DNA of 60,679 nt from a virus (lineage: Duplodnaviria > Caudoviricetes). Within the stretch, counting starts at the first letter, position 1, and every line of letters begins with the position of its first letter. The stretch spans positions 1 to 60,679 of the IMG/VR virus record IMGVR_UViG_3300032214_001145. One strand, given 5' to 3'. The position numbers were made by a program, and so were the translations under genes. The notes beneath the pieces were generated by a model. The model searched no databases. It was given only the letters and a program-made list of their open reading frames with translations, and had not been told where the DNA came from. Positions 22,275 through 30,500 of this stretch are shown here, piece after piece.

Positions 22275-22790
22275 ATGATTTCAATCGATATAAATAGTGA
22301 AGTGCTAAATGATAATGATATGGAATTATTACAAAAAAAATGTGATAATTTTATCCCATCTCAATCACCAACATTAGATAAAGATAATATAAATTTTTAT
22401 TTTAGAGAATATATAGATTTAAAAGATCCTATAATGCATAATATTGTTATGGGATTAGAATCGTATATTAAAACTAAATTGTACACTAATTTAGAATTAA
22501 AATCAATGTGGATTAATAAAATTGATATTAACTCTAATAAAGATGATAATTTTCATAAAGATATCTCTCCATGTTCGTTAATATTATATTTAAATGATGA
22601 TTATATCGGGGGGGAGTTAGAATATATTAATGATACTAATAATAGAATGAAAATTACCCCACAAAAAAAATTAGTGGTTATTATGAATAATCAGTTAGAA
22701 CATAGAGTTCTACCTATTACTAGCGGAGTAAGATATAGTTTAGTGGCATTTTTTGGTTTTATGTATAATCAAACTAAAAGTATAATTTAA
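22275..22790 (+). CDS. 2OG-Fe(II) oxygenase (prolyl-4-hydroxylase-like)
   Basis: FHKD, LYLNDDYIGGEL, HRVLPITSGVRYSL; ends KSII. Confidence 0.85.
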   Translation: MISIDINSEVLNDNDMELLQKKCDNFIPSQSPTLDKDNINFYFREYIDLKDPIMHNIVMGLESYIKTKLYTNLELKSMWINKIDINSNKDDNFHKDISPCSLILYLNDDYIGGELEYINDTNNRMKITPQKKLVVIMNNQLEHRVLPITSGVRYSLVAFFGFMYNQTKSII

Positions 22791-22793
22791 AGC

Positions 22794-23432
22794 ATGGAAA
22801 AAATATTTTTTGATGACGCCACTTACATTTGGAAAACCAAATTGAATTACATAAGTGATAAATCGTCTTTTTTAAAAGAAGCATACGCTCTTATAGAATC
22901 CCAGCCTAAAGTTAAGTCAGATGGATTTGGATATAAAAGAGAATGGAACGAACATTTAAATTTTATTGGTGACATTAATGTTGAAACAAAATTAGACCAG
23001 ATTTTTAAAATCGGTATCAATAAATGCAAAGAAATTTATAACGAAAAAAATATAAATTACAATAAAATTAATACTGACTCTTGGATTAATGTTGTTCGAT
23101 CAAAAGATCCAGTACAAGAGAATTTTCACAATGGTAAAAAATTTCATACACATACCGAAATTAATAAAGGAAACAAACAATTTATTCCACACTATACGTA
23201 TGTTTATTATATTCAAATGCCAGATGTAATGAATGGTGATGATGGTGTATTATGTTTTTTAGGTGAAAATAAGAAAGAATACTTCATCAAACCAGAAGAA
23301 GACGATTTAATTATTATGGAGGCGCATGTCCCACACACACCAAATAGTGCTCCTAATTCAACAATTGATAGAATCGTTATGGCGGGAAATGTTGGATTTG
23401 ATTTTATTAAGAAGGAAAAGTCGTTAATATAA
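22794..23432 (+). CDS. Putative 2OG-Fe(II) oxygenase (HxH type)
   Basis: SWINV..HTH..YVYYI..HTP..RIVMAGN; ends KSLI. Confidence 0.75.
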   Translation: MEKIFFDDATYIWKTKLNYISDKSSFLKEAYALIESQPKVKSDGFGYKREWNEHLNFIGDINVETKLDQIFKIGINKCKEIYNEKNINYNKINTDSWINVVRSKDPVQENFHNGKKFHTHTEINKGNKQFIPHYTYVYYIQMPDVMNGDDGVLCFLGENKKEYFIKPEEDDLIIMEAHVPHTPNSAPNSTIDRIVMAGNVGFDFIKKEKSLI

Positions 23433-24193
23433 TGTTAGTAGATAATAATTTTATATATGTGAATTTACCAAGATGTGGATCAACATCATTTCACTATTCA
23501 TGTATATTACATGATTTAGAAATAAAAAATCTAAATTCAGAATGGGGGAAAATAAACTCTAAAATTAATTTCAAAAATATAGACGAAAAGGATATAATGC
23601 AACTAATTACACACGGGCACGAGGAGTTACCATTACTTAGAGAAAAGTTTGGATTTCAGTATCCTATAATTGCTGTTAAAAGGGATAGGCACGATACTTT
23701 TTATTCGTTATATAAACACATTATTTTTGATTTGAAAAGAGCGAATGCGCACAAGGTTTATGATTTTTTTAAAAATATAAGTTTAGATGAATTATTTTTT
23801 TTTAAAACAGAAGATTTACACTCTAATGAGAATAGACTTAACATAATAAACGATTTCTTATTAAAAAAAGAATTTATTAAAAATCGTGCTAAACCATCTA
23901 AACTTATGGACTTATATTCCGAAGAATATATTGTAAATGTAATTAATATATTAATAACTCCATCATCATATTGGCACAATCACGATAAGGATATTATTTG
24001 GTTTGATATTAAAGAATTAAACCTTATGGAAAAATGGGTTTCGAATAAAATTGGGAAAGAATTTAATCTAAAACAAGTTAATTCTAGCCAACATATAGAG
24101 TGTTCTCTAAAACCAGATCAAAATTTCAAAGAAAGGTACAATAGTATTTATGATTTCTATGATATACCAAAAACTAATAAGACACTAATATGA
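23432..24193 (+). CDS. Sulfotransferase-like protein
   Basis: YVNLPRCGSTS resembles the 5'-PSB loop; KRD..FYSLY resembles the 3'-PB motif; ends KTLI. Confidence 0.6.
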   Translation: MLVDNNFIYVNLPRCGSTSFHYSCILHDLEIKNLNSEWGKINSKINFKNIDEKDIMQLITHGHEELPLLREKFGFQYPIIAVKRDRHDTFYSLYKHIIFDLKRANAHKVYDFFKNISLDELFFFKTEDLHSNENRLNIINDFLLKKEFIKNRAKPSKLMDLYSEEYIVNVINILITPSSYWHNHDKDIIWFDIKELNLMEKWVSNKIGKEFNLKQVNSSQHIECSLKPDQNFKERYNSIYDFYDIPKTNKTLI

Positions 24194-28429: not shown

Positions 28430-29232
28430 ATCCATTAGAATATTGGAACCCCGAAACTTTTGAGATATCGTCGTTCCGATTTAAATTAGACGAAAGAAAA
28501 GGAAAGATATATAGAACATCCGGAAGTGATAATACCGGTTTATGTGTGTATACCTATAATGAATTAGGATTTAGAGGTGATAGTATTAAAAAAGAAGGGT
28601 TTAAAGTTATGTCATTTGGGTGCTCAAATACCGAAGGTGTCGCGGTTAATGATAATGAAACTTGGCCGGCTAGATTTACATCGTTAATACCAAACGGAGT
28701 TAATTTTAATTTTGGTACGGGCGGTAGAAGTAATGATTTTATTGTTAGATGTTTATTAACATATTATGATTTAATTAAACCGGATTTAGTTTTTATAATG
28801 TATACATCACCCCATCGAAGAGAAATATATACAAAAGATGGTGGAGTAGAACCATTTATGGCAACACATCAATGGGGATATTTAAGAGAAACCGATGATG
28901 GTGTTAAAACACAAGAATATTTAACTTATTTACAAAATGATAATGAGGATTTTATAAATTGGTATAAAAATCATTTATTAATAAAATATTTTTTAGAATC
29001 AAAGAAATGTAATTGGTTATGGAATGGTAGTCTTGGCATACCAATGGATTATAATGAATTTAATAGATTCGATGGTGATTACGGAAAGTATATAGATTTT
29101 GGTGTGGATAATGGGCACCCAGGTCCAAAACATAATAAAGATTATGCAACTAAATTATTCAACCATGTATATAAAAACTTCAACGAATACCTACCATCAG
29201 GAGTGATAGGTCTCCAAAGTAAAATAATTTAA
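28426..29232 (+). CDS. SGNH-fold protein
   Basis: NELGFRG, FGCSNTEG, NFGTGGRSND, DNGHPG; ends SKII. Confidence 0.7.
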   Translation: MNPLEYWNPETFEISSFRFKLDERKGKIYRTSGSDNTGLCVYTYNELGFRGDSIKKEGFKVMSFGCSNTEGVAVNDNETWPARFTSLIPNGVNFNFGTGGRSNDFIVRCLLTYYDLIKPDLVFIMYTSPHRREIYTKDGGVEPFMATHQWGYLRETDDGVKTQEYLTYLQNDNEDFINWYKNHLLIKYFLESKKCNWLWNGSLGIPMDYNEFNRFDGDYGKYIDFGVDNGHPGPKHNKDYATKLFNHVYKNFNEYLPSGVIGLQSKII

Positions 29233-29253
29233 AATAAAACACTATTTAATATA

Positions 29254-29931
29254 ATGGCAAGAATATGGACATTTGGTGATAGTTTTACAGCATCATTTAA
29301 ACCCGAACCGGAAATAGCAAAAATTGTCGATTGGCGGAATGAATATTGTGAATTCAAAGGGTATATCCCTGGAGTTTATGGTGAAGTTATTTCACAAATA
29401 TTAGATATCCCGCTAATGAACATGGGGATAGGTGGATGTGATAATTATACTATTTTAGACGCAATAATTGATTCATGTGACATGATAAAAGAAGATGATA
29501 TAATTATTGTTGGCTGGTCAAGCGTTTTGAGATCTAGGTTAGTAAATATAAATGATGTTTTTACACCAATTATACCCAACTTACCCGAAAAAAATCTAGC
29601 AGAATTTTTTGGTGTTAAACAATCAACACTTGACGATATATTGGTAAACAGATCACATGTTCTTTATATAAAAGAATTAAATAAATTTATTAAATTGGTG
29701 AATCATTTGTTTCCCAAAAACAAAATTATTCAATGGTCACCATTTTATAGCTGGGCAAATAATGAGGGGGTAAACGTTCAAAAAATGAACATAGATATAG
29801 TGGGAATAAATCGTGAAACTAAAAATGTTGTTAGAGATGGCCATTTTTCGGAGCAAACACATAAAAACTTGGCACATAAAATGATAGAGATTTTAAACAA
29901 AGGGGGTAAAATAACTAATAAGATGATATGA
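29254..29931 (+). CDS. SGNH-fold protein
   Basis: FGDSFT, NMGIGGCDN, DGHFS; ends NKMI. Confidence 0.7.
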   Translation: MARIWTFGDSFTASFKPEPEIAKIVDWRNEYCEFKGYIPGVYGEVISQILDIPLMNMGIGGCDNYTILDAIIDSCDMIKEDDIIIVGWSSVLRSRLVNINDVFTPIIPNLPEKNLAEFFGVKQSTLDDILVNRSHVLYIKELNKFIKLVNHLFPKNKIIQWSPFYSWANNEGVNVQKMNIDIVGINRETKNVVRDGHFSEQTHKNLAHKMIEILNKGGKITNKMI

Positions 29932-30500
29932 TTTATACAATAATTGCTGAGGGTAGAAGTGGTAGTCAGAATTTATTACACTGGCTTTCAATTGCTTTAC
30001 CAAACTTTGAAGCAATTCATGAACCTTTTAACGCAGCAGAAACAAGATATACACAAGATATTAGTGGAAACGATCTTTCATGGATAAGTCCCGGTAAAAA
30101 TTATGTAATAAAAGAACTTTGGCATACTAAGAGAAATTTTACTCCTCTAATTGAAAAAAGTGATAAAATAATCTGTTTATACCGAGAAAATTGGTTCGAA
30201 CAGGTTAGTTCTTTATTATATGCGTTTAAAACAAACAAATGGCACTCAAAATATAGTGTTGAAAGATTAAAAGAAACCATTTCTGAAGAGGAGATATTAG
30301 ATTATTACGAAAATATACAGAAAGGTATTAAAGAAAAATTCCAAATATTCATCAAAGAACAGGGTTTAAAGTCACTGACTTATGAAGATCTTTATCAAGG
30401 ACAGGGCATTTATGATATTAAAGACCATTTTAATATTGAAACCACCCATATCTTCCCATTTAGCGGGCGTTACTTAACTAAAGACAATCCGCTAATATAA
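29928..30500 (+). CDS. Sulfotransferase (Stf0-like P-loop fold)
   Basis: GRSGSQNL, HEPFN, LYREN..Q.SS, TYEDL; ends NPLI. Confidence 0.7.
   Translation: MIYTIIAEGRSGSQNLLHWLSIALPNFEAIHEPFNAAETRYTQDISGNDLSWISPGKNYVIKELWHTKRNFTPLIEKSDKIICLYRENWFEQVSSLLYAFKTNKWHSKYSVERLKETISEEEILDYYENIQKGIKEKFQIFIKEQGLKSLTYEDLYQGQGIYDIKDHFNIETTHIFPFSGRYLTKDNPLI

Follow-up and report, generated by a model that had tools for sequence, protein, structure and literature searches.

C-terminal sorting signals are well known in eukaryotes, and in bacteria they are known from proteolysis and from encapsulins; to our knowledge, they have hardly been described as the organizing principle of a phage gene cluster. Here we analyze a four-residue C-terminal tail, hereafter the tag, that ends ten of the twelve genes between positions 22275 and 30500 of a 60,679-base viral record (IMG/VR record IMGVR_UViG_3300032214_001145). 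The whole record, which we call the window, has approximately 30% G+C and is estimated by CheckV to represent 18% of a genome. The genes of the block all lie on the plus strand and are densely packed. Full-text literature searches, assessed at the level of titles and abstracts, yielded no description of a shared C-terminal tetrapeptide on phage tailoring enzymes.

Several described systems are comparable in part. Encapsulin cargo-loading peptides and cellulosome dockerins also bring diverse enzymes to a common structure by means of a common C-terminal addition on a flexible linker, but they are longer (approximately 10-70 residues), and the shell or cohesin that receives them is known and encoded nearby, whereas the phage signal spans four to seven residues and has no receptor at hand. 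General Pfam and PHROG scans noted no shell-like gene in the cluster, no search dedicated to such genes having been made. In T4-like phages, the capsid targeting sequence is likewise a short terminal peptide by which unrelated proteins all reach the prohead core; it is N-terminal and cleaved by the prohead protease, whereas the tag is C-terminal and nothing ties the tagged enzymes to the virion.

Class I PDZ ligands ([S/T]-x-hydrophobic-COOH) resemble the tag in being free-carboxylate peptides of approximately four residues. Their pattern fits six of the ten window tags (KSII, KSLI, KTLI, NSLI, KTLM, and a second KSLI) but not NKLI, SKII, NKMI, or NPLI, which lack S/T at position -2; in addition, position -1 of the phage tag is strongly aliphatic, and a PDZ domain was found neither in the window nor in a complete relative. 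Peroxisomal PTS1, KKXX/KDEL, CaaX, and clamp-binding motifs were set aside because they differ in residue pattern or belong to eukaryotic systems.

Two signals of bacterial proteolysis share other features with the tag. RRKKAI is given as the C-terminal ClpX tag of MuA, recognized by ClpXP (PMC5143411), and this C-motif-2 tag, CILEQNRRKKAI, is reported to turn Arc into a ClpXP substrate (PMC12723719). The MuA tag and the phage tag are alike in their position at the extreme C-terminus, in having basic residues followed by aliphatic terminal ones, in being short transferable signals on folded proteins, and in their phage origin. They differ in that the phage tag ends Leu/Ile-Ile/Leu after a polar S, T, K, or N, and is carried by 17 or more enzyme families rather than by one transposase. 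The ssrA tag added by transfer-messenger RNA (tmRNA) (C-motif 1, ending LAA) is similar in that an aliphatic C-terminal end is read together with its free carboxylate, and the complete relative has a tmRNA of its own (encoded tag ATSTVAVA); however, the phage tag differs in sequence and is encoded at the natural stop of each gene instead of being added by trans-translation.

A Shared C-Terminal Tail in the 22275-30500 Block

Genes were called as the longest nonoverlapping open reading frames (ORFs) of at least 60 amino acids, plus one ORF of 48 amino acids; because these greedy calls are mechanical, start positions and junction classes are approximate, and the untagged set includes some spurious ORFs. 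Read at all ten stops, the endings KSII, KSLI, KTLI, NSLI, KTLM, KSLI, NKLI, SKII, NKMI, and NPLI are exactly those listed in the original prediction, and the two untagged genes are the exceptions that it had named (25169-26644, ending WGEK, and the 48-amino-acid ORF, ending KHLE). The strict motif, [KNS][STKP][LIM][IM] at the C-terminus, ends 10/12 block genes compared to 1/55 genes elsewhere in the window (Fisher p = 2.8e-9), and a looser ending, [LIM][ILM], is found in 10/12 and 5/55, respectively. Internally, the strict motif occurs at 14 of 18,510 positions, corresponding to 0.009 matches expected in 12 genes, and it ends only 2 of 690 open frames of at least 30 codons that were not called as genes. 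The sole strict match outside the block is a DUF6071 protein (10670..11398, plus strand) ending KKII; similar endings at 12372 (YKLL) and 39495 (EKLL), also noted earlier, are present. In the complete relative (G001; 335,630 bp, 403 called genes) there are 16 strict matches against 1.5 expected, and an uninterrupted run of 12 genes at 280-288.6 kb includes nine that are tagged. The motif is hence not equally frequent across genes in either genome, which answers a frequency check suggested with the original prediction. The observation is real and stronger than first described.

The block begins with a 2OG (2-oxoglutarate)-Fe(II) oxygenase of 171 amino acids (22275..22790; PF13640, E = 9.5e-9; tag KSII at 22776-22787), the domain of which ends at residue 160. 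It is followed by a 2OG-oxygenase-like protein of 212 amino acids (22794..23432; phrog_81; PF13640, E = 0.0033, 18.8 bits; KSLI at 23418-23429), whose stop codon and the following start codon have one base in common (TAATG); a sulfotransferase-like protein of 253 amino acids (23432..24193; KTLI at 24179-24190), which overlaps the next gene by ATGA; a second 2OG-oxygenase-like protein, of 206 amino acids (24190..24810; phrog_274, E = 2.7e-21; PF13640, E = 0.0011, 20.3 bits; NSLI at 24796-24807); and a small Cys-rich protein of 100 amino acids (24812..25114; phrog_13558; KTLM at 25100-25111), 54 nucleotides (nt) before the next gene. Here the two untagged genes intervene: a 491-amino-acid ATP-grasp-like/Hint protein with a Cys-rich tail (25169..26644), which is a candidate scaffold, and the 48-amino-acid ORF (26696..26842), which has no Pfam or PHROG match and a 49-amino-acid counterpart at 89% identity in one related locus (L003). 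Tagging resumes with a radical SAM enzyme of 349 amino acids (26883..27932; PF04055, E = 1.4e-8; KSLI at 27918-27929; ATGA overlap), a 2OG-Fe(II) oxygenase of 166 amino acids (27929..28429; PF13640, E = 2.7e-6; NKLI at 28415-28426; ATGA overlap), a 268-amino-acid enzyme of a phage-specific family (28426..29232; SKII at 29218-29229; next start 21 nt on), a GDSL/SGNH-like protein of 225 amino acids (29254..29931; NKMI at 29917-29928; ATGA overlap), and a 190-amino-acid protein with a P-loop-like RSGS motif (29928..30500; NPLI at 30486-30497; next start 54 nt on).

The original assignment of these proteins to different folds holds up in part. Pfam matches were obtained for four 2OG oxygenases and the radical SAM enzyme, two of the former (22794 and 24190) falling below the 27-bit cut-off, and these matches locate the tails downstream of the 2OG and radical SAM domains, placing the tag beyond the catalytic domains as had been claimed. 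The other labels are leads. The 23432-24193 protein has no Pfam match, and its name comes from the nearest named cluster in the ESM Atlas, in which 59% of members carry Sulfotransfer_2 (score 0.96). For the 268-amino-acid protein, also without a Pfam match, the SGNH label derives from a rank-11 Atlas cluster with Lipase_GDSL in 15% of members, and for the 225-amino-acid protein from an N-terminal GDS motif read in the sequence and from G001 homologues that match Lipase_GDSL weakly. A sulfotransferase-like identity for the 190-amino-acid protein, which has no Pfam match, is likewise a lead only.

A scan of IMG/VR with the radical SAM protein, which has 1,682 database homologues, retrieved 60 loci at 75-91% identity on contigs of up to 335,630 bases. 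We assign this freshwater lineage to the T4-like jumbo phages, because one of these records, G001, rated 100% complete at 335,630 bp, carries a T4-type major capsid gene (E = 1.8e-63). Among isolated phages, neither a megablast search with 22275-30500 nor tblastn searches with the radical SAM and sulfotransferase-like proteins gave a match. Across the loci, the genes between the ATP-grasp/Hint gene and the fiber-like genes vary in number and kind, and nearly all of them, including members of families absent from the window, end K-T-L-I, K-S-L-I, N-K-L-I, or similar. In this abundant freshwater lineage, a four-residue tail thereby marks a changing set of oxygenases, radical SAM enzymes, and sulfotransferase-like and esterase-like enzymes.

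All called proteins of the related loci were clustered by single linkage (BLAST E < 1e-6, at least 60% coverage), and families with at least three distinct sequences were scored as tagged by the ending [LIM][IM]. By this measure, more than half the members are tagged in 17 BLAST-level families, of which at least three are 2OG oxygenases and so are related at the superfamily level. Counted as distinct sequences from related phages, which are not independent events, tagged members make up 35/37 of the radical SAM family, 27/31 of the sulfotransferase-like family, 20/23 of the family of the 29928 gene, 15/25 of the small Cys-rich family, 59/96 of the main 2OG family, and all seven members of a family of 388-amino-acid proteins. 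Tags are absent from the ATP-grasp/Hint (0/30), carbamoyltransferase (0/17), nucleotidyltransferase-like (0/15), APS kinase (0/12), and DUF2061 (0/11) families.

The consensus of the tag is a linker of variable length followed by [K/N/R/Q]-[S/T/K/N]-[L/I]-[I/L] at the free C-terminus. In a family-weighted logo, conditioned on two terminal aliphatic residues and with a lysine background of 0.082, position -4 carries 1.3 bits (K 0.36, N 0.23, R 0.10, Q 0.10) and position -3, which is PDZ position -2, carries 1.0 bit (S 0.26, K 0.22, T 0.16, N 0.14); the last two positions are L/I, and lysine makes up 0.24-0.25 at positions -5 to -7. The codons behind these residues vary, as had been reported (Ser, TCA, TCG, TCC, and AGT; Leu, TTA, TTG, CTA, and CTT; Ile, ATA or ATT where ATA is not forced), and because codons vary freely while the residues stay, selection appears to act at the amino-acid level.

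Within families, the segment ahead of the tag shows insertions and deletions and differs in both length and sequence, but the end itself is kept; members whose sequence finishes with the conserved domain, as in the family of the 28426-29232 gene, have no tag. The radical SAM family illustrates both behaviors. All 120 close homologues (79-90% identity) are tagged, as are 12 of the 16 best representatives of clusters at 50% identity (35-61% identity to the window protein). Where the motif HNxxx[LF] was found, tagged representatives extend 8-9 residues beyond it, whereas the untagged stop 1-3 residues after it or, in one case, after 7. Of the 134 representatives that follow, 17 have two aliphatic residues at the end and four match a strict-like motif. 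In an AlphaFold2 model of the window protein, the mean predicted local distance difference test (pLDDT) score is 90.7 and residues 345-349 score below 50; the last five residues are predicted to be disordered. Since the linker varies within families, untagged homologues end at the conserved domain, and the tail has low pLDDT, the tag is best described as an added extension. It is found on many unrelated tailoring enzymes and one small Cys-rich protein, in a variable cluster between genes for the supply of 3'-phosphoadenosine 5'-phosphosulfate (PAPS) and a fiber gene. Overall, the tag is very probably a short linear motif acting at the protein level at the C-terminus, on an added, flexible, Lys-rich linker, confined to the cluster and independent of gene junctions.

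Comparison of four large records delimits where the tag occurs. In G001, the remaining tagged genes, among them two for GDSL-like proteins and one for a UDP-glucose-dehydrogenase-like protein, lie in a neighboring glycan region. G003 (269 kb, 81% complete) has a minimal cluster, with a tagged Cys-rich protein (KTII) encoded on one side of the ATP-grasp/Hint gene and a tagged sulfotransferase-like protein (NVLI) on the other; this record's homologue of the window's DUF6071 protein ends NNII. Approximately 20 kb away in the same record (L191-L204; 40951-45161 compared to 19320-21935), three 2OG-like homologues are untagged, ending WVGGSTFR, WVGGTVFK, and similar. G002 (287 kb, 86% complete) and G004 (236 kb, 73% complete, 40% G+C) contain neither the tagged cluster nor its enzymes. 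The only isolated-phage matches of the 2OG protein at 24190-24810 are in cyanomyoviruses, at 24-26% identity; in similar fiber-adjacent modification clusters of cyanomyoviruses S-SSM7 and P-SSM7, none of 29 annotated genes inspected has the tag. Because these cyanomyovirus 2OG clusters and the distant 2OG homologues of G003 are untagged, the tag, as far as the compared sequences indicate, tracks location and function and not fold.

Possible Functions of the Tail

Docking of tailoring enzymes to a shared site is, in our estimate, the most likely use of the tag, with a probability of roughly 40%. One shared reader would bind the terminal carboxylate and the last two aliphatic side chains as a common address label. 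The tag would in this way bring interchangeable tailoring enzymes and a small Cys-rich helper to the place where a common substrate is made, which could be the fiber, a fiber glycan, or the ATP-grasp/Hint protein's hypervariable Cys-rich peptide. The 1575-amino-acid fiber-like protein encoded directly downstream of the block (30555..35282, plus strand) may be such a substrate. Candidate readers would be the cluster's own untagged and always-present proteins, the ATP-grasp-like/Hint protein and a small DUF2061 membrane protein.

We favor docking because the tag follows pathway membership rather than fold or general genome position, because it is kept across many families as firmly as the enzymes themselves, because it is also found on a small Cys-rich nonenzyme that always lies near the ATP-grasp/Hint gene, and because Clp genes, which might supply a protease to read it, occur equally in relatives without the cluster. 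The tail is kept on 17 or more families, including newcomers to the variable cluster, and it can be argued that a loss that abolishes an enzyme's usefulness by mislocalization fits this pattern better than a mere rise in the enzyme's level. If docking is the function, the cluster represents a new modular way of building tailoring pathways, and the tag a minimal recruiting signal for engineering.

Several observations weigh against docking. The original prediction had proposed a docking signal like a PDZ ligand or cargo-loading peptide; its core, a selected C-terminal feature outside the folds and common to unrelated enzymes, is supported, but no reader was found, and searches with PDZ_2 and PDZ_6 (PF13180 and PF17820; E ≤ 0.1) detected no PDZ domain in the window (G000) or in G001. 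The strongest positions are the last two aliphatic residues, which fit degrons read by AAA+ proteins better than class I PDZ ligands, and S/T is present at PDZ position -2 in only 6/10 window tags. The lineage has its own ClpC-like/ClpP pair and tmRNA. Some tagged proteins of G001 lie outside the main cluster, and one of them, the UDP-glucose-dehydrogenase-like protein, looks like a supplier of precursors. Finally, the family counts and junction classes carry the limits already given for related phages and greedy ORF calls.

A shared degron, the alternative raised with the original prediction, is possible, although we consider it less probable than docking. The basic linker and two terminal aliphatic residues would be read by an AAA+ unfoldase (the phage's ClpC-like protein with ClpP, or host ClpXP), making the enzymes short-lived or clearing them at a set time. 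The tag has the form of the C-terminal ClpX tag of MuA (PMC5143411, PMC12723719): judged by its residues, it is an exposed tail in which basic residues precede aliphatic terminal ones. Lysine reaches 0.24-0.36 at positions -4 to -7 against the background of 0.082, and the tail is disordered in the AlphaFold2 model. G001 encodes a ClpC-like double-AAA+ unfoldase of 670 amino acids (L066:9705-11717, minus strand) with AAA, AAA_lid_9, UVR, AAA_2, and ClpB_D2-small domains and without Clp_N, as well as ClpP (L071:12530-13207; E = 3.5e-57) and a tmRNA (L065:6274-6679; Rfam, 91 bits). The ClpC-like protein has a VGF loop of the kind that docks ClpP, and its gene matches at least 589 viral-contig stretches. 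Together, the three genes have the appearance of a tagging and proteolysis set carried by the phage.

The ClpC-like gene, however, is also present in G002 and G004, both of them incomplete records without the tagged cluster, so the protease is not specifically tied to the tag. A lytic phage would have no evident gain from destabilizing just these enzymes, and a degron should be easily lost, yet the tag is kept in all 120 close radical SAM homologues. A Clp gene was not found in the window, which covers 18% of a genome. A degron would constitute a phage-specific degradation code paired with the phage ClpC/ClpP/tmRNA set; under either docking or degradation, the tag offers a simple sequence rule for finding pathway members in metagenomes.

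As a reader for docking, the ATP-grasp/Hint protein (25169-26644) is an attractive candidate because the glutathione synthase/glutathionylspermidine synthetase group, which its N-terminal domain weakly resembles, activates the terminal carboxylate of a peptide. Its AlphaFold2 model has a mean pLDDT of 70.7. Foldseek aligns the C-terminal Hint domain with inteins, Hedgehog, and bacterial intein-like (BIL) domains (E = 6e-7; template modeling [TM] score to the target up to 0.81), whereas a sequence profile searched against the PDB finds only the Hint part (BIL2 of BUBL1, E = 0.0017). The N-terminal domain aligns with glutathione synthase (1m0w) and YjfC/YgiC (7uk6, 7uk8, 7uka) at E of approximately 1e-4 and TM scores of 0.27-0.35. 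Across 28 sequences of the family, invariant positions include E21-x-N23 and several Asp, Arg, and Lys residues; at the end of the Hint domain, H465 is nearly invariant and N466 invariant. The predicted structure and alignment thus place the protein among Hint-fold proteins with a terminal His-Asn, while a five-sequence alignment showed no conserved Cys, Ser, or Thr nucleophile at the domain's N-terminal boundary. After H-N follows a hypervariable tail of 25-45 residues, rich in Cys, Trp, Tyr, and Pro, that is almost wholly different between relatives sharing the rest of the protein. By its sequence, the protein resembles a precursor that would cleave itself to release a variable Cys-rich peptide.

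Variant forms of this protein exist. Two proteins of 912-913 amino acids (L054:3230-5968 and L047:220-2961) share only its N-terminal 320 or so residues, end V-H-N-K without a Cys-rich tail, and are followed by a conserved 50-amino-acid ORF; a related form of 620 amino acids (L080:18469-20331) ends VHNKV.

In every case in which the tagged cluster had enough flanking sequence, the ATP-grasp/Hint gene was there as well. A phylogenetic profile over the four large records, three of them incomplete, does not single out a reader, since the ClpC-like gene occurs with and without the tagged cluster and the ATP-grasp/Hint gene belongs to the cluster itself. Co-folding of the whole ATP-grasp/Hint protein with radical SAM residues 300-349 gave a score of 0.04 (mark, 0.32), which counts neither way for binding. 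A doubtful but appealing version of docking is that the ATP-grasp-like domain grips the -L-I-COOH ends and so holds, or ligates, the tailoring enzymes beside its own Hint-released Cys-rich peptide or the fiber. Were this so, the cluster would be a plug-and-play tailoring machine to which new enzymes are recruited by gaining a four-residue tail.

The same protein suggests an improbable third use, in which the tag is a handle for C-terminal chemistry and the ATP-grasp-like domain extends, amidates, or ligates its free carboxylate. RimK, tubulin-tyrosine ligase, and glutathionylspermidine synthetase offer enzymatic analogies. The resemblance of the N-terminal domain to glutathione synthase and YjfC/YgiC, the invariant E21-x-N23 and Asp, Arg, and Lys residues, and the association of the gene with the tagged cluster agree with such chemistry, but the structural match is weak at these TM and pLDDT values, the profile search recovered only the Hint part in the PDB, and the substrate is purely hypothetical.

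It is very unlikely that the tail is a weak membrane-targeting signal, its polybasic stretch and two aliphatic residues retaining the enzymes at the inner membrane, the site of lipid-linked glycan assembly. Lysine is enriched upstream of a hydrophobic end and many cluster genes look glycan-related; against this, the tails inspected show no sign of an amphipathic helix, a pair of aliphatic residues is little for binding a membrane, and the conserved polar positions -3 and -4 (1.0 and 1.3 bits), together with strict terminal placement, point to specific recognition.

Gene Junctions and Base Composition

Because the next start is no more than 4 nt away for eight of the ten window tags and the gene content of the cluster is highly variable between relatives, the tag could be a side effect of some signal that the nucleic acid carries at gene junctions: a translation initiation context, for instance, microhomology for recombination in cassette shuffling, or a promoter. 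The last codon is forced to be ATA where genes overlap by ATGA, and ATA is also used at 24/27 TAATG junctions. Nevertheless, this explanation is largely refuted and has very little probability left. The register of the tag is fixed to the stop codon and not to the next start. Within the window, the stops at 25114, 29232, and 30500 lie clear of the next starts at 25169, 29254, and 30555, as had been pointed out. In a set of 691 distinct gene-end contexts, 229 end [LIM][IM]: 48 at ATGA, 30 at TAATG, 18 at longer overlaps, 77 at gaps of 0-10 nt, 18 at gaps of 11-40 nt, and 33 at gaps of more than 40 nt, with five having no same-strand gene downstream. Thus 51 of the 229 are more than 10 nt from the next gene. 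Overlaps are equally common among the 462 untagged ends, which include 46 ATGA and 45 TAATG junctions (91 together).

The same independence is seen within families. All 31 radical SAM ends are tagged across four junction types (12 TAATG, eight ATGA, eight gaps of 0-10 nt, and three gaps of more than 10 nt), whereas none of 11 APS kinase ends is tagged though nine are ATGA, and none of 16 nucleotidyltransferase-like ends, including seven TAATG and three ATGA. A translational-coupling artifact of ATGA and TAATG junctions was rejected, since tags are not restricted, overall or within families, to genes whose next start overlaps or abuts; the possibility, raised at the outset, that the motif merely tracks overlap with the next gene is removed by the same result. 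The preference for ATA as last codon is also found in untagged genes (24 ATA compared to 17 ATT), and both synonymous and six-fold codon variation are free. The DNA word that accounts for the majority of tags, [CT]T[AG]AT[ATG]T[AG]A, is not enriched outside gene ends (37 matches on the plus strand and 34 on the minus strand, compared to approximately 30 expected per strand).

Chance in an A+T-rich genome can be dismissed: the window is rich in Ile, Lys, and Asn at approximately 30% G+C, but the internal and uncalled-frame frequencies given above put the probability of 10 of 12 or more at approximately 4e-30, and the other genes of the same genomes are without the motif.

Genomic Neighborhood and Other Observations

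Directly upstream of the block, on the plus strand, lie three untagged genes identified by Pfam, encoding an APS kinase (21222-21683), a nucleotidyltransferase-like protein (21680-22090), and the DUF2061 membrane protein (within 21990-22268). Overlaps make up the majority of gene junctions in these families. The APS kinase set suggests a phage-encoded supply of PAPS for the sulfotransferase-like enzymes. Orthologues of the APS kinase end K-L-x-L (KLKL, KLSL, KLTL), in a register different from that of the tag. Carbamoyltransferase and glycosyltransferase-like genes are also found upstream.

The fiber-like protein downstream of the block is repeat-rich, and fiber-like genes also come after the block in relatives. 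Directly after this gene in the window (35300-38682) are three tandem paralogues of 377, 368, and 369 amino acids, the first of which belongs to phrog_1417; all start M-x-x-E-N-[ILV]-E-[IV]-S-G-S-L and end SSGHCGWR(A). A thymidylate synthase of 403 amino acids is encoded at 52635-53846 (phrog_160, E = 5e-108). It may carry an insertion, since its 403 residues cover just 295 of 335 profile positions. In G001, a full-length GOLLD RNA (Rfam RF02032; 290 bits compared to a gathering score of 150) is encoded on the minus strand at L065:8548-8949, beside four tRNA genes.

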